This document shows, piece by piece, positions 2,296-39,088 of a DNA stretch of 52,976 bases. The notes below the pieces were generated by a model. That model saw nothing but the letters and a program-made list of their open reading frames with translations, was not told the origin of the DNA and did not search any database. Both the position numbers and the translations under genes were made by a program. Positions within the stretch are counted from its first letter, which is position 1, and each line of letters opens with the position of its first letter. Source of the DNA: a phage; sequence record PZ049337.1; one strand, given 5' to 3'.

Positions 2296-4250
2296 TAGTG
2301 AATCTCTGCGTAGTTATCACCGAACTGTACATCACATGCACAATCACGGTTAAGTTTAAGTTCTTTGTTGGTTCGGTCCATTGCCTCATTAAGTAAGTCT
2401 GTCCACAAATCACGGAAACCTTTCTTAACTTGGAGAATCAATTCATCATGGAATTGTCCAGACAGAAGCGGGTCACAGCCCCAACGTTCGTTACAAATTG
2501 CAATAATGTTATTACACCAAATATCAAACACATATGCGCCAGTACCCTGACACAATGTGGAGAAGCGGTCTTTCTCTGTACGCAATGAATACCAGAATTT
2601 GTTTACTGGATTCTGTTGCCACATCTGACCATCAACTGTGATAACTTTAGTGTTAGCAGCAATTTCTTTGATAGACCAGTTCAAGTCCCAATATGCTTTA
2701 TGCAGTCGTGCAGCAGTATTCTGGTCGCAACCAGCAGAACGGGCTACAGTTGGTACACCAGCACCATACTGACAAGCATAGTTTGTGGTCTTAAACATTG
2801 GACGTTGTTTACACTTCTTAATTCCGTCCTTATGGTCCTGAGATTCTTGTTCGGTGATAAATCCACCAATTACGCCGATTGCAAGGTGAGCATCATAGTC
2901 TGGTGCCAACTGCTTCTTAACGTATTCAGGGTCATACATCCACTGGAAGTGGTGCTTACAGCGGTCTTCCAGTGAACACAAGTCAGAGCCTAACTGCTCG
3001 TAGTCTTCGCGCCACGCTTCCAACATTGAACGAAGCTCTTCACCGCCAAATACGCGAATAGAAGGGAGGTTAACAAGTTCGCGGTGTTTAAGACGTAAAG
3101 TATTGGTAAGACCACCGCATCTTGCAGTAAGGAATCCATCTTCATCGACGTCGCGAAGGAAGCCATTAACAACAGACAGACGGTGTTTATACACGCCCAT
3201 ACCAATAAGGTGTTGAATACCGGAGTCGGGGTTTCTTTCTGCCAGCTTATGCAAGCTCGGACAGATTTCAGGATTTCCATCTTCATCCTTCACAGTGATT
3301 TGCGGAATCTGGCGAGTTTCACCTGTTTCCTTGTTACGGTCAAACTTAAAGGTTTCCGGTTCCCAACCTAGGCTGAACAACCAATCTTTGATTTGAACAT
3401 GTGAACCAGCATTAGGCTTCTTATAACCTTTAAGAACCTTGATAGCCAGGTCTGGGTCTTTCCAGTCCAAACCGTTTGCATCACAAATAGCCTTCCACTT
3501 AATTCCAGTGGCAGACAGTTGCCCGTTCATTTTGTGGCATTTAGTTGGACGGGTTTTGATAACATATTCCGGAACACGCGGCATTGATGCTTCCAATGCG
3601 TCCGTCTTCTCTTTAATCATTGGTTCCAGCTTGGCCTTAAACGCCAATGCCTTCTCAATGTTCAGCTTCCAGCGAGTACGTTGTTGAATAACTTGTTGAC
3701 GAGCTTTTGTCATCAGGTATTCAACGAAGCGTTTAACTTCGCTAGGAGATTTATAAATCTTCAAGAGTTGGATGTATTGCTGTTCCCACAGCTTCAACTG
3801 AATCTTGCAGTCTTCCATCACACGATGGTTGTACTCTTCTTGAGTTTGATTTTCCCAATCTTCAATGACTGGTTTTGGCACACCAAACTCTTCGCCGTAA
3901 CCTTCTAAGCCGTGCTTAACACGACGAGGTTGCAGATACCAACTGATAAACAAAGTATCAATTAGTGTACATTTTGAAACGTCGTAGCCCAGGAACCTCA
4001 GTGCCTCAAAGTCGAAGGTTGCGCCATTGTGAGTACAAAATGTTGGACCAGTATCTAGGAAGTCCTGAATAGCCTTTCTTTCAGTCCATTCAAACACCTT
4101 CTCTTCACGAGAAACAACATCAATGATTCCCATGTTGTGCAAGCGCGGTGCTTCTTGCTTCTTCATTTGGTCCAGTAAGCCAGTGGTTTCAATATCCATA
4201 GCATACATATTGGAGTAAGGATACAACATTTCAGGCTCCGAACTATTCAA
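2295..4250 (-). CDS. DNA polymerase, family A, with 3'-5' exonuclease domain
   Basis: Exo I motif DIETTGL near N-terminus; Pol A motif B RPMFKTTNYACQYG (R-x3-K-x7-YG); motif C FHDEL. Confidence 0.8.
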   Translation of the reverse strand: MNSSEPEMLYPYSNMYAMDIETTGLLDQMKKQEAPRLHNMGIIDVVSREEKVFEWTERKAIQDFLDTGPTFCTHNGATFDFEALRFLGYDVSKCTLIDTLFISWYLQPRRVKHGLEGYGEEFGVPKPVIEDWENQTQEEYNHRVMEDCKIQLKLWEQQYIQLLKIYKSPSEVKRFVEYLMTKARQQVIQQRTRWKLNIEKALAFKAKLEPMIKEKTDALEASMPRVPEYVIKTRPTKCHKMNGQLSATGIKWKAICDANGLDWKDPDLAIKVLKGYKKPNAGSHVQIKDWLFSLGWEPETFKFDRNKETGETRQIPQITVKDEDGNPEICPSLHKLAERNPDSGIQHLIGMGVYKHRLSVVNGFLRDVDEDGFLTARCGGLTNTLRLKHRELVNLPSIRVFGGEELRSMLEAWREDYEQLGSDLCSLEDRCKHHFQWMYDPEYVKKQLAPDYDAHLAIGVIGGFITEQESQDHKDGIKKCKQRPMFKTTNYACQYGAGVPTVARSAGCDQNTAARLHKAYWDLNWSIKEIAANTKVITVDGQMWQQNPVNKFWYSLRTEKDRFSTLCQGTGAYVFDIWCNNIIAICNERWGCDPLLSGQFHDELILQVKKGFRDLWTDLLNEAMDRTNKELKLNRDCACDVQFGDNYAEIH

Positions 4251-23552: not shown

Positions 23553-24671
23553 TTAAAGCTCAAATCCGCCCAGAGCATTGGTGTCAACTTCGGAGTCAAT
23601 CTGCCCGACAAGGTACGAACTAATCTCCGTTTCTTGTGGAGCAACCTGTACAGCATCCGAGTTCAGCCATGCGTTAATCCAAGGAATCGGGTTAGTTGCA
23701 CCTTTGAATGGGGCATCTAATCCAACTGCTTGCATACGAATATTCGTAATATATTCCACATATCCGCACAGAATTTGCTTGTTTAAGCCAATCATGGAGC
23801 CATCTTTGAACAAATAATCGGCCCAATCTTTCTCTTGTTGGGCAGCATCTTCGAACAATTTCTGGCATTCTTCACGACATTCTTGAGCAATTTCTCCCAT
23901 TTCTGGGTCATCTTTACCACTCGCAAGAATATTCAACATGTGCTGAGTTCCGGTCAAATGGAGTGCTTCATCTCGTGCAATCAGTCGAATAATCTTGGCA
24001 TTTCCTTCCATTAACTTGCGTTCAGCGAAGGCAAATGAGCAAGCAAAACTAACATAAAAGCGGATTGCTTCTAGTGCATTGATAGACATGAGGCATAAAT
24101 AGAGCTTCTTCTTCAACTCACGCAGACTAATTTCGTGACCAGCATGGTTCCCTTCTCCGAACAACTGCCATAATGCAGTGAGTTGTTGAAGTTCGTCATA
24201 ATACTGGGAGATGCCAATTGCTCGTGCTTTGATATGTTCGTTAGTTACGATTTCATCAAAGATAATGCTTGGGTCTGTAACGATGTTTCGAATAATGTGG
24301 GTGTAAGAACGTGAATGGATAGTCTCAGAGAAAGACCAAGTTTCAATCCAAGTTTCAAGCTCAGGAATGCTCACGATTGGAAGCAAAACTGTGTTAGGTC
24401 CACGTCCCTGAATGGAGTCCAGAAGGATTTGATAGCGCAAATTACTGGTGAAAATGTGCTGCTCATTTGGTGGGAGCTTCTGGTAATCAATACGGTCTTG
24501 TGAAACATCTACCTCCTCCGGTCGCCAGAAGAATGACAATTGTTTCTCAATCAACTTCTCGAATATGCCATACTTCTGTTGGTCATAGCGAGCAACGTTG
24601 ACGTTCTGACCAAAGAACATTGGTTCTAATAGTTGGTTATTCTTGGTTTGTGAAAAGGTAGTGTAAGACAT
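23553..24671 (-). CDS. nrdB: ribonucleotide reductase class Ia small subunit
   Basis: 372 aa; N-terminus [34 protein letters not shown]... closely resembles E. coli NrdB as I recall it; [17 protein letters not shown] (radical Tyr) and RDEALH iron ligands present. Confidence 0.9.
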
Positions 24672-24673
24672 TA

Positions 24674-25234
24674 TTATTTATTTCCTAAATACTTATAAAA
24701 TTTATGTCCACCACAGGCTCCTCTTCCAACAACTCTTTTGAAATTACATTTCTCTGTAGCTGTGCAGAAGTGGGTGGCATCGGTTACATCTGGAGCATCC
24801 AACAATGCGAAGTTAATTGCTACATTCATGGTGTCCCAAACCTGTTTTGATTCAGTCTTCCAATTTGTTTTAACTATATTCTTCCATTGAGCATTCTTCT
24901 TCTTTGCTTCTCTTGTCCAAGCAAACTGGTTGCGTTGATATACTACATCGCAAACGGTGTTAGCGAATGGCTTCCCGAATTTGATTCGATTACGGACGAC
25001 ATTAGCTACCAGAATCTTTCCATGCTTGCTTTCTCCACGAGCCTCAAACCAAATTACTTTGGCATAGCATTCTATATCTTTGCGTTGAGAAATAGATAGT
25101 TTCGGATTTCCATTTAAATAAGATTGACTTGCAAATTCTGTAATAGTGGCGTTCACTGCCCCAGCCGAAGCTGGGACATTTGCGTGAAACAGACTCACCA
25201 ACAGAAATGCAAGAACTTGTGCTGAGGGCATCAT
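24674..25234 (-). CDS. secreted SleB-like cell-wall hydrolase (candidate endolysin)
   Basis: N-terminal signal/SAR-like [26 protein letters not shown]; [24 protein letters not shown] resembles Hydrolase_2/SleB; adjacent to holin. Confidence 0.55.
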
Positions 25235-25249
25235 AGTTCCTTGTTTGCA

Positions 25250-25591
25250 TTATTTGGCCTTCTTAAACCAATTGAGTGGGTTGAGTTGTTTGATTGCAGC
25301 AGTGAAGCAATCTCGAATTGTGGTAATGATTAGGTTAGCCCCAATCAAACCAATCACCATTGCGGCGATTGTGGCATAGCGCGGTTCATTTTTGAATATG
25401 TCTACGAAGCCTGGGAGGGAGAAAACGAACGTACCAATAACCACACAAAGCAGGGCATCAAAAATAGCTTTCAGCAAGCCTTCCTTTTCATATGCCCCAC
25501 GAATGAGTGCAGTCAATCCAGCAAGAAGTCCATGCAGGACTCCATACTGGTGCATTGCTTCCCATACCATCTGGAAAGTTTGTCTATCCAT
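25250..25591 (-). CDS. holin (three predicted transmembrane helices)
   Basis: 113 aa; hydrophobic segments YGVLHGLLAGLTALI, LLCVVIGTFVFSLPGFV, ATIAAMVIGLIGANLIITTI; charged C-terminus; next to the hydrolase. Confidence 0.6.
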   Translation of the reverse strand: MDRQTFQMVWEAMHQYGVLHGLLAGLTALIRGAYEKEGLLKAIFDALLCVVIGTFVFSLPGFVDIFKNEPRYATIAAMVIGLIGANLIITTIRDCFTAAIKQLNPLNWFKKAK

Positions 25592-26133
25592 TAGATTTCA
25601 TTCCAGTCAATTACTTCGGTTAAGTCGAGTTGAGAAAGTTTGATACGCTTCTTCTTAAGTTCAATCAACATTTCGTTGTCAGACTTCTTAGCCATACCAA
25701 GCTCAGCCACGTCAGTGAGAATACCGATTTCTTCGGACAGTGGTGCAAGTTTCTTCTTACGCATAAACTCGTTATATTTCACACGGTTTTCTTTATGCTC
25801 AACAAACTTCTCACCATCAAACTTCCAGAAGTGTCTGTTTTCTTCAACACCATCTGGTAGGGCATCCAATTCAACTATGTTTCCACCTAGCGGCGTAGCC
25901 ACAGTGTCACCAGGTCCAAAGTCGATATGACGAATAGAGCCATCATTCTCATACACGACCTTGGCAGTTCCATCTTTAAGACCCTTTCGAATCTTATACC
26001 AGCATGTTCCATTCTCATCACAACCGAAGAGAATCTTGTGCTCGTCCCTGAGCACTTGCTGTTTTTCAGTTAGGTCTGTGTTCTCAACAAACCTTTTATA
26101 GTTACACAGAATAGCAGTCATACCATTCTCCAT
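25591..26133 (-). CDS. hypothetical protein, possible tail-fibre assembly/accessory protein
   Basis: 180 aa, downstream of the three fibre genes; assignment by position only. Confidence 0.3.
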   Translation of the reverse strand: MENGMTAILCNYKRFVENTDLTEKQQVLRDEHKILFGCDENGTCWYKIRKGLKDGTAKVVYENDGSIRHIDFGPGDTVATPLGGNIVELDALPDGVEENRHFWKFDGEKFVEHKENRVKYNEFMRKKKLAPLSEEIGILTDVAELGMAKKSDNEMLIELKKKRIKLSQLDLTEVIDWNEI

Positions 26134-27454
26134 TCACATATTTCTGCAATTTACGACGACCAATGTAGTCGATAATTTCGTCAGCAGTTTGGTTGACTAC
26201 AGCGGTGATTACCCAACCAGATTCATCTCGATACCCATAGCCATGCCATGTGGTAGTCTCTTGGTAAGACCCTAAACGAATGTCCCTCAGGAATGAGGAG
26301 TTGGCCCAATTCTCTCGTGCAAATCGGAAAGGGCCACCGTTGCCAGTGTAATCAATGTTGCCGTCATTCTGGAATACCCATCTGTGTACATTACCATCAT
26401 CACCTCGGCGAGAGATTACAGGATTTGAGAAGTCGGATGTTTTGGAGTAAGCGCCAAAGGAAATCCAAGTACCATACCCATAACCAGCCGTAGTTGTGTT
26501 AAGTGTTAAAATAGGGACCCAAGCATCTGGACCAACCTCACAATTATAAACACCGTATGGAACAGTGCCGTCTGCTTCCTGACCCCAACCCCGACCCCAA
26601 GTCAATCCACGATAATGCCCTTCTAAGAACAGCTTGAAGTCTGTGCCAGTACCACGTATGGCAAGTTGGTTGTGGCCCTCTGCGATAAGACGTGCAGTAT
26701 AATCCAAACCAGAGTTAGCATGGTGGAAGTCGATGTATGGAATATTGTTATACAACTCTATTGCACCAACTTCTGTGGTGCGGTCACGCTGATTCACTCG
26801 CGCAAGCTCTTTCCAACTGACCCAGTTCTGAGAGGCATCCAGTGTACGACTGCGAACCCAAACGTTACCGTAGATTGATGTGTAGCGTTGTTGAACACCA
26901 TATGCAGTCGGGAGAACTTCCAGTGTACCAGCATGTGATGCTGGATAGCCACCAGCAGAGCCAGCAACAGCATCAGACTCTTGGTAGTAAACACCAACAT
27001 CTGACGCACCTGTAAGCAGGTTAATGTTGAAGTTTGAGGCATTTTTGCAAGTCATCACAGCATGTGCTGTATACGACCTGCCGCCAGATGGACCTTGCGA
27101 GTAGTACATAATTGGCGGCCGTGCTGCCTGACTATGTGATACCAAGATTGACGCATTGCTGATATCAGACACGCCAAGAACAGTAATGATTACATACGCA
27201 CCGCTTACAGAAGAGAGGTCCCACTTCTGTAACTCTGGAGGAACGTTGACAGCAGAGTTCATCTCAACATACAGAACCTCACCATTTACAAAAGTGTAGG
27301 TATTGAAGTTGAAGTTTCTTACAAATGCTGTGGTTGGAATCTGGGCATTCTTTTGTCCAACAGTGATTACTTCACCACGAGCAGTACCTGCATTTAAGAA
27401 TGCAGCAGACTTTAAGGCGGCAACTAAGCCGCCAAATGACCAACCTTTAGCCAT
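26102..27454 (-). CDS. tail fibre / receptor-binding protein (third fibre gene)
   Basis: 450 aa, Gly/Ser/Thr/Tyr-rich, in the fibre block; unrelated to the two upstream fibres. Confidence 0.45.
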   Translation of the reverse strand: MAKGWSFGGLVAALKSAAFLNAGTARGEVITVGQKNAQIPTTAFVRNFNFNTYTFVNGEVLYVEMNSAVNVPPELQKWDLSSVSGAYVIITVLGVSDISNASILVSHSQAARPPIMYYSQGPSGGRSYTAHAVMTCKNASNFNINLLTGASDVGVYYQESDAVAGSAGGYPASHAGTLEVLPTAYGVQQRYTSIYGNVWVRSRTLDASQNWVSWKELARVNQRDRTTEVGAIELYNNIPYIDFHHANSGLDYTARLIAEGHNQLAIRGTGTDFKLFLEGHYRGLTWGRGWGQEADGTVPYGVYNCEVGPDAWVPILTLNTTTAGYGYGTWISFGAYSKTSDFSNPVISRRGDDGNVHRWVFQNDGNIDYTGNGGPFRFARENWANSSFLRDIRLGSYQETTTWHGYGYRDESGWVITAVVNQTADEIIDYIGRRKLQKYVNGEWYDCYSV

Positions 27455-27463
27455 TACATTACC

Positions 27464-28855
27464 TTATAAAGTGGATATTTGGTTTGGAGTCATTTTGAAA
27501 TCCCAAACTCGGAAGTTGCGAACCGCATAGTTTCTTGATGTTGGATAGAAGTGAATCTGCGGATACCTGCCAACACATGCAGCAGCAACGTTCTGTGATG
27601 TATCCGCTGCCACACGCACACCATCAACATAGATTTCAAGGCCAGCGGTCGTGCTTAATGTTGCAGCTATACGATACCACTTATTAACCTGCCTAGGAAG
27701 GATGTAGTAAATCCAGTCAGAACCAGCAGCAGAGCTTCGGACAACACTGAGTTGTCCTTTGTTCTTCAAAAAGAGGTCTATGTTCTCGCCACCAACACCA
27801 TTAAGCGAGAAGTAGATGCCAACACTATCGTCGCTATCTGGTGCACGAGGTGTGTTAGAAAGAACATCAACACAGATTGTGCAATCCGTAAATCCGTACC
27901 CATTACCTTCGTACAAAGTTTCTCGAACATCCTGGCCAGCAGTTCTGTACAGAGCACCACCATAAGCATTGTTAAAATACAAATTGTCGGAGGCGTTAAT
28001 TGCACCCTTACCGTAGTAAATATTAAAGTCACCAATCAGATGCTGACAGAAGTTTGGTTCTGGTACTGAATACTTAGGTTCTTCACGAGCCTTAACTTCT
28101 GCGAATGTTGCATCAGTAATGATTCGAGAGTTGGTGTTTGTTGAAGCCTTGCCAACAACTGGAACACCACTGGCATCCAGACCAATACGTGTATCACCAG
28201 ACTGCATGTAGAAGCCAGCAGGACCGAATGACAACTTTGTGGTTCCACTTGCATCAAACAACATACCTTGCTGGAATGTAACAGGTCCGGTATAAGTGCC
28301 GCCAGCTACAGGAACAGCACCTGCCTGGGCAGCAGTTACTTTATGTGGATTGTTTCGGTCGTTGGCGTGACTTGCAACAAGGGCATTATATTGAGCAATC
28401 AACGAATCAATTTGTGCTTTGTTGTATGCACCAATCGTGTTGGCTGTTAGTCTGTGCGGGTTAGAAGTAACATCTGCAATGTGTGCAGAAATCTTACTAA
28501 CAATATCGTCGTAGTCATAACGAGATACTTGAATCGCACTTGCAGCCCACTGCCCTAAGTTCTGACTAGGGCGTAGGGTACGACTAGGGGAGCCAACAGT
28601 TGCAACATAAACAGTTCGAGTTGCATCATCCCACACAAGGGAACCAAGTCCGTACTGAACATCAGTTCCCCATTCGAAGACACCACGCTCAGCTAATGCC
28701 AGAAGAGTAGTGTCAACCTTATATTGCAAGTAGTTAAGAACCTGGAAGGTTGGGATTTCTGCAATCCACCCTTGAAGATACTTAGCATCCCCAGGGTCAC
28801 GCCGTAAGTTGGCGTTGTTCGAAGTCCAGACTCTATTAAGTTTTGGTCTTAACAT
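27464..28855 (-). CDS. tail fibre protein (paralog of 28855..30054)
   Basis: 463 aa; shares N-terminal domain, NPHK(V/D)T, GGTYTGPVTF and C-terminal NQIS(T/M)L with its neighbour. Confidence 0.55.
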   Translation of the reverse strand: MLRPKLNRVWTSNNANLRRDPGDAKYLQGWIAEIPTFQVLNYLQYKVDTTLLALAERGVFEWGTDVQYGLGSLVWDDATRTVYVATVGSPSRTLRPSQNLGQWAASAIQVSRYDYDDIVSKISAHIADVTSNPHRLTANTIGAYNKAQIDSLIAQYNALVASHANDRNNPHKVTAAQAGAVPVAGGTYTGPVTFQQGMLFDASGTTKLSFGPAGFYMQSGDTRIGLDASGVPVVGKASTNTNSRIITDATFAEVKAREEPKYSVPEPNFCQHLIGDFNIYYGKGAINASDNLYFNNAYGGALYRTAGQDVRETLYEGNGYGFTDCTICVDVLSNTPRAPDSDDSVGIYFSLNGVGGENIDLFLKNKGQLSVVRSSAAGSDWIYYILPRQVNKWYRIAATLSTTAGLEIYVDGVRVAADTSQNVAAACVGRYPQIHFYPTSRNYAVRNFRVWDFKMTPNQISTL

Positions 28856-30054
28856 TATCGTCTCGCAAGCATAGAGATTTGGTTGGCAGAAAGCCTCGGA
28901 TATACGGCAAAGAATCTTAGAGCCATAACAGTCTTGTCTGCAAATAAGTTATTATCAATGTAGTCTTTCAAATCGAGTCCGTCAGGAAAGTTGAAAGAAT
29001 CCCCATTGGCAGTTCGCATGACCACGTCAACTTCATCGGTAGTAACCACAACAACCACAGTAGTAGGTATGTTCAGAATCGGACCAAAGAATTTCAACCC
29101 ATTGTTGGAGATTTTAAATCCACCATACCAAAACTCTGGGTCAATGGTTGTCTCGACAGTCCATAAACCAACAGACTCTGCGTCATTAATATCTTCATGG
29201 AAGTTGGCACGGAGCATTGGAACAGGAAGTGCAAACTGATTGCCATACTTAATGTTGAAGTTGTTATAGTTTGCTTCTGTAATGATTTCAAAAGCACCAG
29301 CAGAGTTGATGAACCACGCGTGTCCACCACTGTCTACACCTATTGCAGTGGTTCCATTGACCAACTCAAATACACCAGTCGAATCATTTCGATGTGCATA
29401 TTGTGAAACACCGCTACCAGCATATGCTTCTTCGATGAAAGTTATTGGCCCTGTGAAAGTTCCGCCAAATGTTGGAAGTGTTCCGAGTTGTTTCGGAATT
29501 ACCCTGTGAACAGATGCACCAGTTCTGGAGATATGATACGGGATTGTTGTAACTCGTTCGTCACTGGCGAACCTGTCATACACATAATCTTGAAGGTATG
29601 TCCCATCAACAATTGTGTCTACAGTATCTTTGTGTGGGTTCTGTTCTGCCATGTGGGCATTGAACGTGTTCTTGAGATATTGGACCTTTTCATTATACTG
29701 AGCAAGGTTGGTCTCAAGAACTTCTTGCCATCCACTTCCAGAAGTTGAAGGATTTATATTCCCAGGAATCTCTTCCCGCTTCTGATAAATCTTACCATCA
29801 ACTAATGCAAAAGCGCCAAGCGAATATGTTACAGTGTCGCACCATTGAAGTATTCCACCAAGCAACATCTCTCGAATCTTGACGTCAGTGATTTGAGTTA
29901 AGAAGTTCTGCCACTGTTCAGGAGGCTTTTCAGCCTCCCAACCAACAGTGGCATATCGGTCTGGAGTATAGGATGGTGCAGTTGTATCCAAGTCGGGGTC
30001 AAGTGCTTTGCCATCCTGCGCCCAATATTCTGGGTAATTCAAACGATTTGTCAT
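28855..30054 (-). CDS. tail fibre protein (paralog of 27464..28855)
   Basis: 399 aa; shared motifs NPHKDT, FGGTFTGPITF, C-terminal NQISML. Confidence 0.55.
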   Translation of the reverse strand: MTNRLNYPEYWAQDGKALDPDLDTTAPSYTPDRYATVGWEAEKPPEQWQNFLTQITDVKIREMLLGGILQWCDTVTYSLGAFALVDGKIYQKREEIPGNINPSTSGSGWQEVLETNLAQYNEKVQYLKNTFNAHMAEQNPHKDTVDTIVDGTYLQDYVYDRFASDERVTTIPYHISRTGASVHRVIPKQLGTLPTFGGTFTGPITFIEEAYAGSGVSQYAHRNDSTGVFELVNGTTAIGVDSGGHAWFINSAGAFEIITEANYNNFNIKYGNQFALPVPMLRANFHEDINDAESVGLWTVETTIDPEFWYGGFKISNNGLKFFGPILNIPTTVVVVVTTDEVDVVMRTANGDSFNFPDGLDLKDYIDNNLFADKTVMALRFFAVYPRLSANQISMLARR

Positions 30055-30695
30055 TGGTTCTCCGGTGGATAAACTTTAGAGACATATGGAAGTTCAATAG
30101 CACCACCATTGTCCGAAAGAGTTATGGAGATGCCAACAGGCTTAAAGTCTGGCAGCATGTAAGCTAACAAGACTTTCTCAGCAACTGACAATGTGTTATG
30201 TACTTGGTATTGTAGTGTCTGGAATCCTTCAACAATTTCAAGATTCAAGTTACGGCCAAGAACAAGGTCTACATAAACAATCAGTTCTTCGATTGTACAT
30301 CTTCCGACAATCTTACGAATACGGGCACGTATCGCATCTTTAAGCTGAGTGTCGGTACGAACAAAGTCACCAGAGTCTCGGTCGCCATCTGACTTCAAGA
30401 CACCACCAACGCCAGGATTATTATCATCTCCAGCAGGGAATGCACTTGGGTCAGAATAGAAGCCGAAGTACCCAAGTGGTGCAGCACCATAGATAGTACG
30501 GCTGGCACCAATGAGATATGCAATATCATCAACCATGACGCCGAATGAATCAGCAAGGTAGCGATATTTAACAGACTCTTCTTGAGCATTTTGGACGAGC
30601 TTTAACTCGTCCAAGAAAATCTGGATATATGCCCGTAAGTTTGGAGAATCGCTATACTGCATTAGCAGCATATCTAAACCAGATTTACCAGCCAT
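30051..30695 (-). CDS. baseplate protein (P2 gpI / Mu gp48-like by position)
   Basis: 214 aa directly after the J-like gene. Confidence 0.45.
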   Translation of the reverse strand: MAGKSGLDMLLMQYSDSPNLRAYIQIFLDELKLVQNAQEESVKYRYLADSFGVMVDDIAYLIGASRTIYGAAPLGYFGFYSDPSAFPAGDDNNPGVGGVLKSDGDRDSGDFVRTDTQLKDAIRARIRKIVGRCTIEELIVYVDLVLGRNLNLEIVEGFQTLQYQVHNTLSVAEKVLLAYMLPDFKPVGISITLSDNGGAIELPYVSKVYPPENQ

Positions 30696-30703
30696 GATTA
30701 ACC

Positions 30704-31858
30704 TTATAGTGTTTCAGTGAAAATTACAGATGCAGTTGTAGCTTCCGCTTTCTTATCAATGTCCAGTTCGATTGTAGCAATGCCAGTAGGACTTGCAGAA
30801 GTACCAATGAACAATGAATCAACCTGAACACCATTAGTGGCATCCATGATAGGCTTGAAACACTCTGACCAGATAACAGAATCACCTGGGTTCAGGGAGT
30901 TGATATAATCCATCATAGCCGTTTGCAACTGGCGTGCAGCATCGTTGGAACTAATGTTAGAACCAGGACGACGCTTGAATTTACCAGTTACATAAATGAT
31001 TTCATCTTTTGGGCGGCTAAACTTAACTTCGTGTGGATAACCTTTACTGTCATAAATAGACACAGATGTAGTCCCATGAGTTGGGACACCGCCCGTTTTG
31101 GAAGAGTAGATTCGACGAGCAATTTCGTCTTCTGTTCCACCCTCTACGACAACAAAGACTGTGCCCGAAGGCTGAGTCCCAATAGGAGCGCCGGTATCAT
31201 TATCACGAATACGAAGGTAAGATAGATTAAGGTCAGCGAGTGCAGCGTAAATAGCTTCAACAAAGGCCGAGCCGCTGTGTGCAGTAGTCCTGTCACGGCG
31301 AGTACGAAGTGCTGGGTCAGACTCATAATCCACACCTGTTTGACCAATCTCTGGGTTGTTAACTGATTCCCAACCTGCGACTGGTGTATTGATTTTATTA
31401 ACAGTGTTGGCAGCAATATAATATTCACCAGTTTCTGTGGCTACTGCCGTAACAGTTCCTGGAATAATGCAGTCATATTGCGTCTTGAAATCCATTGTTC
31501 CATCACTGACAATAGAGCCAGCAGGAACAAGAGTGCCAGCCTGACCAGCACAACGGACACCAACACGAGAAGGCCAGTTGACCAATCGTTTAGTGAAGGT
31601 CAGTTCACAGATGTTGTCCAGACCAATCTTCTGCATTGCACCAGGACGATAGGCATTGAATACCATTTCAGCCTGTTGCCAGCACTTAGAGATTTCTTCT
31701 GAAATGATTCCAATAACCTGGCCATCTGGGCCTTCTGGACTAATGTCAAAGTTGGCACCAAACACGCTAAGGAATCTGCTATTAATGTGCGACACGATTT
31801 CTTGAACAGGCTTCTGTACGAACCCGTTTTCAGTCACGCCATACTGGATTGTTGCCAT
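30704..31858 (-). CDS. baseplate J-like protein (Mu gp47 / P2 gpJ family)
   Basis: 384 aa, position between W-like and I-like genes. Confidence 0.55.
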   Translation of the reverse strand: MATIQYGVTENGFVQKPVQEIVSHINSRFLSVFGANFDISPEGPDGQVIGIISEEISKCWQQAEMVFNAYRPGAMQKIGLDNICELTFTKRLVNWPSRVGVRCAGQAGTLVPAGSIVSDGTMDFKTQYDCIIPGTVTAVATETGEYYIAANTVNKINTPVAGWESVNNPEIGQTGVDYESDPALRTRRDRTTAHSGSAFVEAIYAALADLNLSYLRIRDNDTGAPIGTQPSGTVFVVVEGGTEDEIARRIYSSKTGGVPTHGTTSVSIYDSKGYPHEVKFSRPKDEIIYVTGKFKRRPGSNISSNDAARQLQTAMMDYINSLNPGDSVIWSECFKPIMDATNGVQVDSLFIGTSASPTGIATIELDIDKKAEATTASVIFTETL

Positions 31859-35398: not shown

Positions 35399-38300
35399 TT
35401 ATCTACGTTCCATTGCACCATTACCCATGTTGATTGTTTGGGTAACAGTTTGACCGTTCGGAGTTGACACGGTTGCAGACGCTTGCTTGTTGTTCACAGT
35501 AGCTTTGACTTCAACGTTAACTACAGTAGCCTGTGTCTGACCATAAGATAGTCCATTTCTGGTGAAGCCGGTTGCACCTTCTGCAATAGAATCGCCCTGA
35601 GAAGCCCATTCGCGGTACTTCTTGACGCGGTTCTGTGCCTGTAGAGGAACAGCATTGAGCCAGTCGGTTCCGTGTTTGTTGATAGCATCATCAACAGTTC
35701 CAGCACCATCCGTATACGCCGCCATAGCCTTCTCAGCGTCACCATTATAACGCTTGAGCATTGCATCATAGTAGTCACGACCAACGCGAGCACGTTCTTC
35801 CAGTGAGTTATCACGGGCAGGTTTAACGCCGAATCCTGGGTCACGGGAAGTTGAATCAAGAACCTGCATACGACCTTTGGCACCAGTCGGAGATGTAACC
35901 ACCGAACCATCTGCGTTCAAATCGCGGTTCCCTGACTCTTCTCCTGCGATAAAGTCGTAAACATTACGTGCTGCATCGGCTGCACCGTTGGAGGTCATAC
36001 GCATCACTCTGGCTGCGTCACCGCCTGCCTCAATAAAGGTGCTGCCGTATGAGATTGCAGCTTGCGGAACAGCGTAACCAGGCAATACCCCAGCACGCTC
36101 CGTCTGCGCAATTCCTAGCTGTGCAACGCCTTCGGCATAGTTTGAGTCAGCCCCACGCTGAACGTTCGCCTCAGCCTCGCCCATGCTGTATTCTGTGCGG
36201 TCATAGGCACGAGCCATACCGTCCAGTCCAGCCATTTGCATAGCACCAGCGATACGCGCCTGACTCCAGCCTCGTTCCTGACCACGTTCGCGCATTACCC
36301 GCGCTAAGGCTACAGGGTCGCCCTGTGCCTGCCTAATGTCGCCAATGGTGATAAGACCACGGGTTCCCTGAACAATGCTCACAGCGCCGCTGGGGTCGCC
36401 ATTTAGGAGGGTGTTATAGGCACTATGTGTGGTTTGATTCAGTCGGCTGGCTTGCTGGGAATTAAGTCCTAACATCTCCATGCCCTGAGTCATGGAAGAG
36501 TATTCGTTAGGGTTATTTACACCAGCATCTAACGAGTTTCCGTAGAAGTCATTCAGACCTTCCAGAGCTTCGTTGCCAATTTGGGTAGCACCAATAGCCA
36601 TACCAGCGACACGACCCCACGGAGTCATCATCATGGCATTCATTGCACCAGTGGATAAAGAGCCAATACTGCCGCCAGCTACGCCAGCAGCTAATGCCCC
36701 ACCCATACGACCGAAGTCATCACCAAAACTGCCACCAGCTTGCCACCCACGACGTCCACCACCGCCACCAGAACCACCACCGCTAATACCATAGCTACTA
36801 GCATCAATGTTGTCCCAGAAGCCGCCTGAGCGCCCACCGTCGCCACCACCGAAATCTGCATCCTGACCACGGAGCTTGTTCTCTTCCTGTGCTGCGAGGA
36901 TACCTTTCTTAACTGACACAGCCATCAGGTCATTGCCAGTTGTGCTATCAGCGCCCACAGCAGAGGCTGTAGCAGCACCAATTCCAGCATCGGTACGGTT
37001 TCTTAAGAACGGGTCATCATCAGTGCCAGCAGCAGCACTGTATCTTGCCATTCCACGCTTGCCAGCCGTGTATCCTTCGCCTTCCCTGTGGTCACGAGTC
37101 TGGTATCCCCAGATGCCACCACCAGACATAACTTCACGAGTTGCATTAATAAGGTCTTTGCCTTCAAGGTCAGAGCTTTCCATAAACTCACGACCAGCAT
37201 TCATGCGTGCTTGTGAAGATGCAATCTTATTCTTGTTACGTTCGAACCACGTTGGGTCAGCATCAACCCACTGGCTACGAGATTCTTCGCCAACAGTTTG
37301 AGTAAATAGGGTACGACTACGACCACTCAAATGCATACCAAGTTGCATCTGGTCCATGTAGTTCGGAGTAGATTCCAAATCTTTAAAGTCGTTTGGAGCC
37401 TTATGTTCCCACAGAGCATCATCACCAATTAATCCATCTGGCGAGTACATCATGCCAGGATAGTTATCGTTAGTGATTGCACCAGTTTCTGTTATCTCAA
37501 CCCCATACTTCTCGCCAACTCTCGGCCTGGCCCATGCCTCTAATCTGTGACCACGCTCAAAGTTCTCACGCGCTCGTGGAGAATCCTTTCTTACTGTGAG
37601 GCCAATCTTCTCGCCCATTGTATGTATTGGACTATTATTGGTTGCGGGGTTGTGGCCCAGATAATCACCAATAGTAGAGCCAGTAATATCGTACTGCTTA
37701 CGAAAATCAAGCCACTCCTGCGTACCTTGTTCGAGCGCATTGTGGTATTTAACCGAACTAGGCTGTCCAGCACCAGCACTATCGAGATTTGCAATAGCAA
37801 TAGCTTCTCTTCTATCCCTTGCAGAATTCCAACTTGTCGGTTCATTCAGATTTGCCGTAAACTCTCTGGATGTACTAAGTTCAGTAGGTCCAGTATTTCT
37901 TAAACGTTCAGCAGGGTCGAAAGTTCTGCTTACTTCTGCTTCATTATATTGGTGGGCATTCTCAAGTACACCACGAATAGATGCACCAGAGTAACGAGGG
38001 TCATCACCAATATCTTTCTTGAGGTTGTCATAACCAGAACGAGCATCTGCAAGGTCTATATAACGAGATGCAGAATCAAGAATTAAATCTCGGTCAGAAG
38101 ATTGAGTGCGATAAGCATTCATCCCTCGTTCTGAGCCACCAGCATATACCTGAGCAGCAGATTTAACTACGCCAGATACATCTTGATATAAAGATTTACT
38201 TGCATCAGACCAACCTGGAGAGCCAGATAGTGATGCAGATAAAGAGTATTCAGCCTTAATGCCAGAACCCATAGAGCCTAGAGGTAGGCCAGATGCGTTA

Positions 38301-39088
38301 AGAGGTTGGCGAGGATGTTGAATATCACCAACAATAGACTCGGAACCAAGTTGAGGAAGAGAATCCATGTATGAAACTCTTGGCCCCGACTTATTACCTA
38401 CATTCATTGCAGATACGGCAGCAACTTCACGGAAGTTTTGCGGCAATTCTGATTCTAAACGTTTGGCTACACGATAAACATCTCGTGCATAGCGGTCTGG
38501 GTCGTCATATTGTTGACGGTCAACATACATATGAGCTAGGTAGCCCATAGATTTGGCAATATCTCCACGGTTTGTGGAATATTCACCCATAATATCGCCA
38601 GTGTAATGCCCAGGAAGTTCCGGCATTATATCTTGATGACCTGCCAGCGTATCACGCATGTACGCATTAAGCATTCCCCAATGGCCTTCTGGCTTGTTTG
38701 TGTTTGCTTTAGGCATGTGCATCCACACATCATCGGTGGATACACCTAATTTCTCCATGTAGGCATGAACAGCTTCTACATGGTGACTTGGACCGTTCAT
38801 TGCAGCATGGAATGTTTCAGTCAGCCCAGCACCAGAAATCATCTGTGCAATGTGAGCTGAATCTGAAATCATGTCGGAAGTACCATAAGAGATGCCATCA
38901 TCTTCTGTGTAGGTTTCTTCCATAAGCTGTGAATTTGTTTCCATCCAACCAGAGGCAGCACTTGATTCAAGTTGCTGTGCCATATCTCGTTTGCGCATAC
39001 CTGGATTGAATGACAGACCATATTGAGCGCCTAAGCCAATCAATTCGGCTTCGGACATTCTCATCAAATCTTTTATGTTATTAGCCAT
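35399..39088 (-). CDS. tail tape measure protein with lytic transglycosylase (SLT) domain
   Basis: 1229 aa; long Gly-rich tract; SLT-like AGEESGNRDLNADGSVVTSPTGAKGRMQV and following YYDAMLKRYNG...AYTDGAG. Confidence 0.75.
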   Translation of the reverse strand: MANNIKDLMRMSEAELIGLGAQYGLSFNPGMRKRDMAQQLESSAASGWMETNSQLMEETYTEDDGISYGTSDMISDSAHIAQMISGAGLTETFHAAMNGPSHHVEAVHAYMEKLGVSTDDVWMHMPKANTNKPEGHWGMLNAYMRDTLAGHQDIMPELPGHYTGDIMGEYSTNRGDIAKSMGYLAHMYVDRQQYDDPDRYARDVYRVAKRLESELPQNFREVAAVSAMNVGNKSGPRVSYMDSLPQLGSESIVGDIQHPRQPLNASGLPLGSMGSGIKAEYSLSASLSGSPGWSDASKSLYQDVSGVVKSAAQVYAGGSERGMNAYRTQSSDRDLILDSASRYIDLADARSGYDNLKKDIGDDPRYSGASIRGVLENAHQYNEAEVSRTFDPAERLRNTGPTELSTSREFTANLNEPTSWNSARDRREAIAIANLDSAGAGQPSSVKYHNALEQGTQEWLDFRKQYDITGSTIGDYLGHNPATNNSPIHTMGEKIGLTVRKDSPRARENFERGHRLEAWARPRVGEKYGVEITETGAITNDNYPGMMYSPDGLIGDDALWEHKAPNDFKDLESTPNYMDQMQLGMHLSGRSRTLFTQTVGEESRSQWVDADPTWFERNKNKIASSQARMNAGREFMESSDLEGKDLINATREVMSGGGIWGYQTRDHREGEGYTAGKRGMARYSAAAGTDDDPFLRNRTDAGIGAATASAVGADSTTGNDLMAVSVKKGILAAQEENKLRGQDADFGGGDGGRSGGFWDNIDASSYGISGGGSGGGGGRRGWQAGGSFGDDFGRMGGALAAGVAGGSIGSLSTGAMNAMMMTPWGRVAGMAIGATQIGNEALEGLNDFYGNSLDAGVNNPNEYSSMTQGMEMLGLNSQQASRLNQTTHSAYNTLLNGDPSGAVSIVQGTRGLITIGDIRQAQGDPVALARVMRERGQERGWSQARIAGAMQMAGLDGMARAYDRTEYSMGEAEANVQRGADSNYAEGVAQLGIAQTERAGVLPGYAVPQAAISYGSTFIEAGGDAARVMRMTSNGAADAARNVYDFIAGEESGNRDLNADGSVVTSPTGAKGRMQVLDSTSRDPGFGVKPARDNSLEERARVGRDYYDAMLKRYNGDAEKAMAAYTDGAGTVDDAINKHGTDWLNAVPLQAQNRVKKYREWASQGDSIAEGATGFTRNGLSYGQTQATVVNVEVKATVNNKQASATVSTPNGQTVTQTINMGNGAMERR

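Follow-up and report, generated by a model that had tools for sequence, protein, structure and literature searches.

A paralogous pair of tail fibres and a third, unrelated fibre in a family-wide Chaseviridae locus

The window analyzed here (the whole 52,976-nt stretch of sequence record PZ049337.1) is the near-complete genome of a Chaseviridae (Carltongylesvirus-like) myophage, in which three neighboring genes, hereafter F1, F2, and F3, probably encode an adsorption apparatus of three components that is standard for the family, namely two separately anchored, lectin-tipped fibres (F1 and F2) complemented by a plug-in fibre (F3). The three-fibre layout as such is real but ordinary: It is family-wide and already known, three conserved fibre proteins having been reported for the group by Lukianova et al. 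2020 (PMC6989608). Apparently unstated in papers on the group are the paralogy of F1 and F2, the probably lectin-like tip of F1, the family-wide gene-3 adaptor peptide, and the connection with the Pakpunavirus baseplate. The features concerned are the following.

30704..31858, minus strand: gpJ, Baseplate_J-like wedge protein, large "triplex" subunit, 384 aa (Pfam PF04865, E=1.2e-9)
30051..30695, minus strand: gpI, DUF2612 / P2 gpI-like small triplex subunit, 214 aa, presumed fibre anchor (Pfam PF11041, E=4.3e-10)
30387..30479, minus strand: fibre-attachment-loop (FAL)-like motif of gpI, aa ~73-103, LGYFGFYSDPSAFPAGDDNNPGVGGVLKSD (aligns with FAL1 of P7-1 gp89)
28855..30054, minus strand: F1, 399-aa fibre paralogue with N-terminal knob, helical His-motif shaft, and reduced beta-sandwich tip (phrog_8147, E=7.1e-87)
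28858..29229, minus strand: C-terminal beta-sandwich of F1, aa ~276-399, ending ...YPRLSANQISMLARR
27464..28855, minus strand: F2, 463-aa fibre paralogue with N-terminal knob, helical shaft with two NPH motifs, and LamG-like lectin tip (phrog_8147, E=2.2e-117)
27467..28069, minus strand: C-terminal ConA-like / Laminin_G_3 jelly-roll of F2, aa ~263-463, ending ...WDFKMTPNQISTL (PF13385, aa 341-461)
26102..27454, minus strand: F3, 450-aa fibre, predicted to be an exchangeable receptor binder (PHROG tail-fibre matches)
27419..27454, minus strand: N-terminal adaptor peptide of F3, MAKGWSFGGLVA (family motif M(A)[KR]G[WY]S[FL]xxL)
26108..26311, minus strand: Mu S / P2 H-type fibre tip, F3 aa 382-449 (phmmer vs. 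PDB 8ju3, E=2.3e-11)
25591..26133, minus strand: Tfa, tail fibre assembly chaperone, 180 aa, partner of the F3 tip (Pfam Caudo_TAP PF02413, 33.2 bits)

Gene order of the fibre locus

The three fibre ORFs named in a preliminary description of this DNA are all present on the minus strand, exactly at the positions listed above, in a region that is ~94% identical to Yersinia phage PYps3T. Their direct orthologues, in the same order, are ORF078-080 of PYps3T (96%, 96%, and 90% identical to F1, F2, and F3, respectively), TF1-3 of PP101, gp74-76 of ST32, and gp70-72 of phiEcoM-GJ1. More generally, the order gpJ, gpI (DUF2612), F1, F2, and a variable gene 3 was found in every Chaseviridae locus inspected, in phages of Escherichia, Pectobacterium, Erwinia, Aeromonas, Shewanella, and Vibrio. 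This block stands upstream of holin and endolysin in the window, PYps3T, ST32, PP101, and Faunus; ZPAH14, MSO-5, and VPs20 likewise keep the core order but have additional genes ahead of any lysis gene. GenBank labels for these genes are inconsistent ("minor tail protein," "hypothetical protein," and "tail fiber protein," the latter even for gpJ and gpI). The stop codon of gpI overlaps the start codon of F1 (ATGA) and that of F1 the start codon of F2 (TAATG), a translational coupling which implies that F1 and F2 are co-expressed and not alternated.

F1 and F2 as divergent paralogues with putative lectin-like tips

F1 and F2 had been proposed to be paralogues with a common N-terminal domain, and this was borne out both by BLASTP with composition-based statistics (25% identity over 263 aligned columns, E=2e-16) and by the profile–profile alignment of the two families, built from 109 and 121 sequences, respectively, which pairs residues 1-319 of F1 with residues 1-307 of F2 (99.8% probability, E=9.9e-30). 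These scores indicate that the similarity, as had been claimed, is true homology and not a product of low complexity. As for the motifs said to be shared, GGT(F/Y)TGP(I/V)TF does align (GGTFTGPITF at F1 197-206 with GGTYTGPVTF at F2 185-194), and NQIS(M/T)L does occur at both C-termini (NQISML and NQISTL, one per paralogue), where it is the closing motif of the terminal beta-sandwich. The two cited copies of NPHK(D/V)T, however, are not counterparts: NPHKDT of F1 (139-144) pairs with the first F2 copy, NPHRLT (132-137), and NPHKVT of F2 (169-174) pairs with a degenerate F1 copy around H183. Two NPH motifs are found in 121/121 F2 homologues and one in 108/109 F1 homologues. The difference between the paralogues was, moreover, misplaced when located in the middle of the proteins, which are alignable to ~300 and diverge in their C-terminal third, the terminal beta-sandwich of F2 being ~70 residues larger than that of F1. 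Finally, the pair is tandem in that the paralogues are adjacent, but nothing supports a recent duplication confined to this lineage, the pair being present in every Chaseviridae locus inspected and an analogous pair in Pakpunavirus. Because both paralogues stand at each of these Chaseviridae loci, the duplication is ancient.

The same description suggested a broad or switchable host range. The corresponding reading, in which a recent tandem duplication gave rise to alternative receptor-binding fibres, is largely refuted by this family-wide conservation, and we regard it as highly improbable. It is true that adjacent paralogous genes with divergent C-terminal regions could be read in this way, and that relatives lyse strains of several genera (PMC8762354); nonetheless, identity between the paralogues is only 25%, each of them is found throughout the family, and their genes are translationally coupled. 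Signs of a switch were also searched for in the window, which differs from phage Mu in that no invertible G segment, alternative S'/U' genes, or Gin-type invertase is found. A repeat search recovered no DNA-level repeat between the F1 and F2 genes and, as inverted repeats flanking the tip genes, only chance matches of 19-28 nt with 79% complementarity; no large opposite-strand fibre ORF is present in the window; no Gin/Cin-type recombinase or reverse transcriptase domain was detected in the 20 large ORFs scanned; and no diversity-generating retroelement could be recognized, with no direct repeat >22 nt within 24000-31000, no template repeats, and no RT domain. The closest characterized relatives have, besides, narrow host ranges: Phages of the PYps23T group lyse 5.5-8.6% of 128 Y. 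pseudotuberculosis strains (PMC8762354), and MLP1, a close relative, has the narrowest host range of three phages compared (PMC8849078).

Instead, each paralogue would presumably form a trimeric fibre in which the knob is followed by a short helical shaft, whose His motifs are conserved, and then by a lectin-like beta-sandwich tip. The AF2 models have mean pLDDTs of 79 (F1) and 78 (F2), the N-terminal knobs of both being poorly modelled as monomers. F1 and F2 both end in a beta-sandwich, lectin-like in F2 and probably so in F1, which makes them putative sugar binders. For F2, the tip matches PF13385 (E=5.7e-8, 33.5 bits vs. a cutoff of 27.6) when the C-terminal domain is scanned alone, a match missed by the full-length Pfam scan but precomputed for most F2 homologues, and Foldseek relates it to the receptor-binding domains of botulinum neurotoxin / NTNH (E~1e-10). 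In agreement with this, an independent HHpred analysis assigned a carbohydrate-binding fold to TF2, the F2 orthologue of PP101 (PMC6989608). The F2 tip thus resembles Laminin_G_3 / ConA-like lectins such as the HCN subdomain of clostridial neurotoxins and beta-sandwich CBMs, whereas the F1 tip, with its ~70 residues fewer, gave no Laminin_G_3/ConA match by Pfam or Foldseek.

In both paralogues, conservation falls from the N- to the C-terminus, and nowhere does the locus vary more than in the C-terminal domain of F2 (~30% mean pairwise identity across F2 homologues). The C-terminal replacement is sharp in PYps16N/23T, where these domains are only 27-57% identical while the baseplate proteins stay at 95-99%. 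Exchange between strains concentrates on the F1/F2 tip, which probably binds a surface glycan (for example, LPS or O-antigen). With regard to this, MLP1 needs the O-antigen, its EOP being down ~4 log on a waaL mutant (PMC8849078), which, by analogy, may be taken as a circumstantial sign of carbohydrate binding by the fibres described here.

F3, its adaptor peptide, and its chaperone

The third fibre gene had been described as unrelated to the other two, and rightly so, F3 having no significant similarity to F1 or F2 (best E 0.21 and 1.2). It starts with MAKGWSFGGL, which fits the family motif; 25/25 Chaseviridae gene-3 proteins from GenBank and IMG/VR carry such a peptide of ~10 residues at the N-terminus, while a tblastn search against phages found it confined to this phage group. 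Behind this conserved peptide, at least 12 unrelated bodies occur across the family. For instance, the F3 body of TH26 is replaced after ~24 residues, and the Tfa gene is absent there; in PYps16N/23T, residues 1-60 of F3 are 100% identical. The comparison with related phages suggested in the preliminary description thus does reveal module swaps, in the C-termini of F1 and F2 in PYps16N/23T and in the F3 body of TH26.

At its other end, F3 is matched by phrog_5454 and phrog_454, and its residues 382-449 resemble the tip of Mu S. As in the S/U and H/G pairs of phages Mu and P2, a Caudo_TAP chaperone gene comes next (Tfa, phrog_136 E=1.9e-25; PF02413 above its cutoff of 22.1 bits), but at its N-terminus F3 has an adaptor specific to Chaseviridae in place of the Mu/P2 baseplate-binding domain. 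Judging from its sequence, F3 appears to be a plug-in receptor binder whose body is swappable behind the adaptor peptide: The latter would dock onto a conserved partner, everything behind it would be free to change, and the neighboring Tfa chaperone would assist the folding of the Mu-S-type tip. Host range would then depend on as many as three exchangeable binding modules acting together, without switching among them. As a side observation, the F3 peptide loosely resembles the fibre-attachment loop of gpI (GYFGF...), a likeness captured by a pattern that was designed after seeing both and that is speculation only.

Baseplate anchoring and arrangement of the fibres

The shared N-terminal knob of F1 and F2 is homologous to the baseplate-anchoring knobs of the fibres of Pakpunavirus P7-1. 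Residues 5-128 of F2 match the P7-1 short tail fibre gp92 (E=1.7e-7), and the F1 family profile matches the N-termini of the PAK_P1 LTF (E=6.8e-8) and STF (E=1.5e-6), whose knobs are themselves 36% identical (E=1e-13) and whose genes are in the same order as here. Among these knobs, STF matches F2 best, yet LTF is closer to STF than either is to F1/F2. The likeness extends to the baseplate: The best solved relative of gpJ, which is 95-99% identical in close relatives, is P7-1 gp88 (E=6.6e-31), and gpI matches P7-1 gp89 (E=2.2e-5), the solved P7-1 baseplate (PDB 9zd7) being the best PDB match for gpJ, gpI, and the F2 knob alike. P7-1 also encodes these homologues of gpJ and gpI, and the same gene order continues there with a pair of fibres whose knobs are paralogous. 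The homology ends after the knob, though, shafts and tips being unrelated, and P7-1 is without a third fibre, whereas the phage described here has F3. The Pakpunavirus-type dual-fibre baseplate bears twelve trimeric fibres on its triplex. In P7-1, both fibres attach to loops of gp89 (bioRxiv 10.1101/2025.11.26.690771), and by homology the knobs of F1 and F2 would anchor these fibres to the gpJ/gpI "triplex" at the baseplate rim.

Where P7-1 gp89 has two attachment loops, gpI has one that is recognizable. Its FAL-like motif, which aligns with FAL1 and weakly with FAL2 of gp89, is the sole NPxVGG among the minus-strand ORFs of the window and is kept in 6/7 Chaseviridae gpI proteins compared. A second FAL (FAL2) was not found in the 214-aa gpI, which is 29 residues shorter than gp89 and lacks the C-terminal extension that carries FAL2 there. 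Given this shorter length and single motif, we only infer that both F1 and F2 are anchored on gpI. Cleopatravirinae gpI proteins carry at the place of FAL2 a conserved C-terminal tail (..VYSSxxYPPE) without sequence similarity to FAL2, and a divergent second anchor may exist.

The single recognizable loop also suits the T4-like serial fibre proposed by Lukianova et al. 2020 for the orthologues of PP101, PM1, GJ1, ST32, Faunus, and Y2 (PMC6989608), in which F1 would be the proximal rod, mounted on the baseplate, F2 a knee/knob with a carbohydrate-binding domain, and F3 the distal, receptor-contacting half of six long jointed fibres, in place of separate sets of fibres. At least for F3, the short conserved N-terminal peptide in place of a baseplate-binding domain speaks for such a joint as well, and the electron microscopy of phage Y2, as cited in PMC6989608, shows bicomponent fibres with a globular junction; as worded in that citation, though, "bicomponent" means two parts, not three. 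The solved homologues of the F1 and F2 knobs, P7-1 gp90 and gp92, both bind baseplate loops and not another fibre, and the contrast in PYps16N/23T between variable F1/F2 C-termini and an invariant F3 N-terminus is awkward for a conserved joint. We thus find a serial fibre rather unlikely and favor separately anchored F1 and F2, against which it nevertheless counts that the exchange of the F1/F2 C-termini in PYps16N/23T goes along with host ranges that differ only slightly. A Y. pseudotuberculosis O:11 strain and a Salmonella strain tell PYps3T and PYps16N apart (PMC8762354).

It could also be argued that F2 is mainly a structural strut lying along the sheath, which would stabilize the extended tail like gp92 without binding any receptor. 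Indeed, it is the F2 N-knob that best matches gp92, and the P7-1 short fibre lies on the sheath, where it is thought to block premature contraction (bioRxiv 10.1101/2025.11.26.690771). However, this homology is limited to the first ~130 residues, the P7-1 STF is 92-99.6% conserved within its genus whereas the F2 tip is hypervariable, and a lectin-type fold in the C-terminal domain is the pattern expected for host binding, so that we consider this role for F2 improbable.

The docking place of F3 may be envisaged in one further way. Because the F3 peptide loosely resembles the attachment loop and gpI has one loop for two knob-bearing paralogues, the peptide (KG[WY]SF..L) might be a family-wide plug that threads in trans into the knob of one paralogue, producing a branched fibre. 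This is a long shot, but, if true, receptor-binding bodies could be exchanged without touching the scaffold, in what would be a very compact, naturally modular re-targeting system for a contractile-tailed phage.

Overall, the value of these observations lies mostly in annotation and phage engineering and not in a new mechanism. They provide a coherent annotation map of the locus, with two putatively lectin-tipped scaffold fibres and one putative plug-in receptor binder with its chaperone. In this regard, the adaptor peptide may mark a site where receptor-binding modules can naturally be spliced and swapped in those Chaseviridae that are considered for the biocontrol of E. coli, Yersinia, Erwinia, and Pectobacterium.

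The fibre locus and its genomic context

The three open reading frames of the preliminary description are confirmed at precisely the coordinates given there, all on the minus strand, and are here called F1, F2 and F3. They follow genes for a gpV-like spike, a gpW-like protein, gpJ and gpI, and precede the lysis genes:

30704-31858, minus strand: Baseplate_J protein (gpJ), upstream of the fibres
30051-30695, minus strand: DUF2612/gpI-like protein (gpI), upstream of the fibres
28855-30054, minus strand: F1, 399 aa
27464-28855, minus strand: F2, 463 aa
26102-27454, minus strand: F3, 450 aa
25591-26133, minus strand: Caudo_TAP tail-fibre assembly chaperone (Tfa), downstream of F3
24674-25591: holin, then endolysin (named as in the PYps3T annotation), downstream of the chaperone

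The window is essentially a complete, unidirectional genome of Chaseviridae type encoding a T7-like single-subunit RNA polymerase, and its 4.8-kb fibre region shares 94% DNA identity with Yersinia phage PYps3T and 87-92% with several Escherichia and Shigella phages, these close relatives all being assigned to Chaseviridae, Cleopatravirinae, with one placed in Carltongylesvirus. The stop codon of gpI overlaps the F1 start (ATGA) and that of F1 the F2 start (TAATG), which suggests that gpI, F1 and F2 would be co-expressed rather than alternated. The switchable host range formerly proposed for this locus finds no support: inverted repeats and opposite-strand alternative tip genes are absent, and neither an invertase nor a reverse transcriptase turned up among the 20 large ORFs scanned.

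Product names in GenBank differ between relatives for the same orthologues (loci L001, L002 and L006): the Baseplate_J and DUF2612 proteins of PYps3T and the DUF2612 protein of PO103-1 are called "tail fiber protein", the F2 orthologue "minor tail protein", and the F3 orthologue is a "hypothetical protein" in PYps3T and unannotated in PO103-1. The gene in the tape-measure position (35399-39088, minus strand; 1229 aa) goes in relatives under the names "tail tube initiator", "tail fiber" or "main tail fiber protein", which looks wrong. Its product carries a YqaJ-like domain of PD-(D/E)XK exonuclease fold (aa 458-590, E=7e-11), unusual within a tape measure protein, and an SLT lytic transglycosylase domain (aa 1064-1140); the sole GC-rich stretch of the genome (35600-37100, GC 0.51-0.56 vs ~0.44) falls within its C-terminal half (aa ~660-1160), at a different place from the YqaJ-like domain. 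The lysis cassette is also mosaic among relatives, the holin being 67% identical in PO103-1, BSBP01 and vB_Shi_2KOFFS and 96-99% in the others, and the endolysin 74-80% in these three, PYps23T and TH24, and 94-99% elsewhere.

Paralogy, architecture and divergence of F1 and F2

The similarity of F1 and F2 is genuine: a pairwise check by BLASTP with compositional adjustment gave 25% identity over 263 aligned columns (E=2e-16), and profiles built on 109 F1 and 121 F2 homologues aligned over F1 1-319 and F2 1-307 with 99.8% probability (E=9.9e-30). When the C-terminal domains are aligned separately, weak homology reaches F1 ~339 and F2 ~333 (E=7e-6). Both paralogues already fall in one PHROG family, F3 is unrelated to either, as initially noted, and no nucleotide-level repeat was found between the fibre genes. 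The motifs first reported do occur in F1 and F2, but the NPH pairing was wrong, NPHKDT of F1 matching NPHRLT, the first NPH copy of F2, rather than NPHKVT; likewise, the divergence placed in the middle sits in the C-terminal third.

At the N-terminus, F2 residues 5-128 match the knob of gp92 (E=1.7e-7), the short tail fibre (STF) of the Pakpunavirus P7-1, whose baseplate is solved (PDB 9zd7). Behind the knob, the shaft of both paralogues is a helical segment with conserved histidines, borne on two NPH motifs in 121/121 F2 homologues and one in 108/109 F1 homologues, and followed by GGT(F/Y)TG. The F2 model, with pLDDT >88 from residue ~200 onward, ends in a predicted jelly-roll tip that Foldseek matches to botulinum neurotoxin and NTNH receptor-binding domains (E~1e-10); scanned alone, this tip hits Pfam Laminin_G_3 (33.5 bits, threshold 27.6), a domain precomputed for most F2 homologues. 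The NQIS(M/T)L shared by F1 and F2 forms the closing strand and helix of the tip fold and, in generalised form, is found in 92/109 F1 and 114/121 F2 homologues.

The tandem arrangement does not reflect a recent duplication, as every Chaseviridae locus examined (ST32, PP101, Faunus, Aeromonas ZPAH14, Shewanella MSO-5, Vibrio VPs20) has the order gpJ, gpI, F1-like (379-417 aa), F2-like (453-477 aa) and third gene. Mean pairwise identity drops from N- to C-terminus, from 85% to 30% in F2 and from 68% to 37% in F1, and baseplate proteins are 94-99% identical among close relatives. In PYps16N and PYps23T, the C-terminal halves of F1 (40-57%) and F2 (27-57%) are replaced, with the abrupt mosaic junction that is usual for receptor-binding modules.

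The third fibre gene

The C-terminal tip of F3 is of Mu S type (8ju3, E=2.3e-11), and the gene for its chaperone, Tfa, comes next. The gene in this position (gene 3) is far more plastic than F1 and F2: its products measure 181-940 aa, only some are accompanied by a chaperone, and their bodies fall into at least 12 unrelated clusters; all 25 gene-3 proteins nonetheless begin with M(A)[KR]G[WY]S[FL]xxL, a peptide restricted to the Chaseviridae-type phage group by tblastn. In the close relative Escherichia virus TH26, the F3 body is swapped after ~24 residues and the chaperone lost: its gene 3 (2519-3064 of locus L003) encodes 181 aa sharing just those first residues with F3, its N-terminal ~45 residues resemble gene 3 of Pectobacterium phage PP101, and a ~230-nt gap without a Tfa gene separates it from the holin.

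Proposed fibre anchoring, and host range

The best solved relatives of gpJ and gpI are P7-1 gp88 (E=6.6e-31) and gp89 (E=2.2e-5; both PDB 9zd7). Both fibre types of P7-1, six short and six long, attach to gp89 via two fibre-attachment loops, FAL1 and FAL2 (bioRxiv 10.1101/2025.11.26.690771), and in the related phage E217 a loop of this kind passes into one fibre at its trimeric N-terminal interface (PMC10329688). The fibres of Pakpunavirus PAK_P1 are also paralogous over their N-terminal ~115 residues (36% identity, E=1e-13) and follow the same gene order; F2 is clearly nearest the PAK_P1 STF and F1 leans weakly towards the LTF. The most likely working of the locus is that F1 and F2 would be conserved scaffold fibres, held at the gpJ/gpI triplex through their homologous knobs and ending in exchangeable lectin-like tips, with F3 as a plug-in receptor binder docked via its conserved N-terminal peptide.

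The alternative put forward by Lukianova et al. is a serial fibre of T4-like build, with TF1 proximal, TF2 as knee and TF3 distal (PMC6989608), for which they cite electron microscopy of phage Y2. Unlike gp89, the gpI of the window shows a single FAL-like motif for two knob-bearing paralogues and lacks the FAL2-bearing extension; the single motif would also fit a serial fibre. A joint on the F1/F2 tips fits poorly with tips that are highly variable and an F3 peptide that is invariant. The C-terminal ~15 residues of gpI form a conserved tail (..LVYSSxxYPPE in 4/4 Cleopatravirinae gpI compared; ELPYVSKVYPPENQ in the window) in the position of the second FAL of gp89, and may be a divergent second fibre anchor.

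Functional data on relatives agree with recognition of glycans and with a narrow host range: MLP1 plates ~4 log less efficiently on a waaL mutant (PMC8849078), and the PYps23T group lyses 5.5-8.6% of 128 Y. pseudotuberculosis strains (PMC8762354). In a weak natural experiment, PYps3T, 4T and 16T, whose F1/F2 tips resemble those of the window, lyse one O:11 and one Salmonella strain; 16N and 23T, in which the tips are swapped, lyse neither. The core host range is common to all five (PMC8762354).

Database entries for the orthologues already exist and describe them as tail or fibre proteins, and it was published in 2020 that phages of this group have three fibres, the second with a carbohydrate-binding fold (PMC6989608). 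To this are added here the explicit paralogy of F1 and F2, a putative lectin-like fold for the F1 tip, the probable adaptor peptide at the start of gene 3 across the family, and the connection with the P7-1 baseplate structure.
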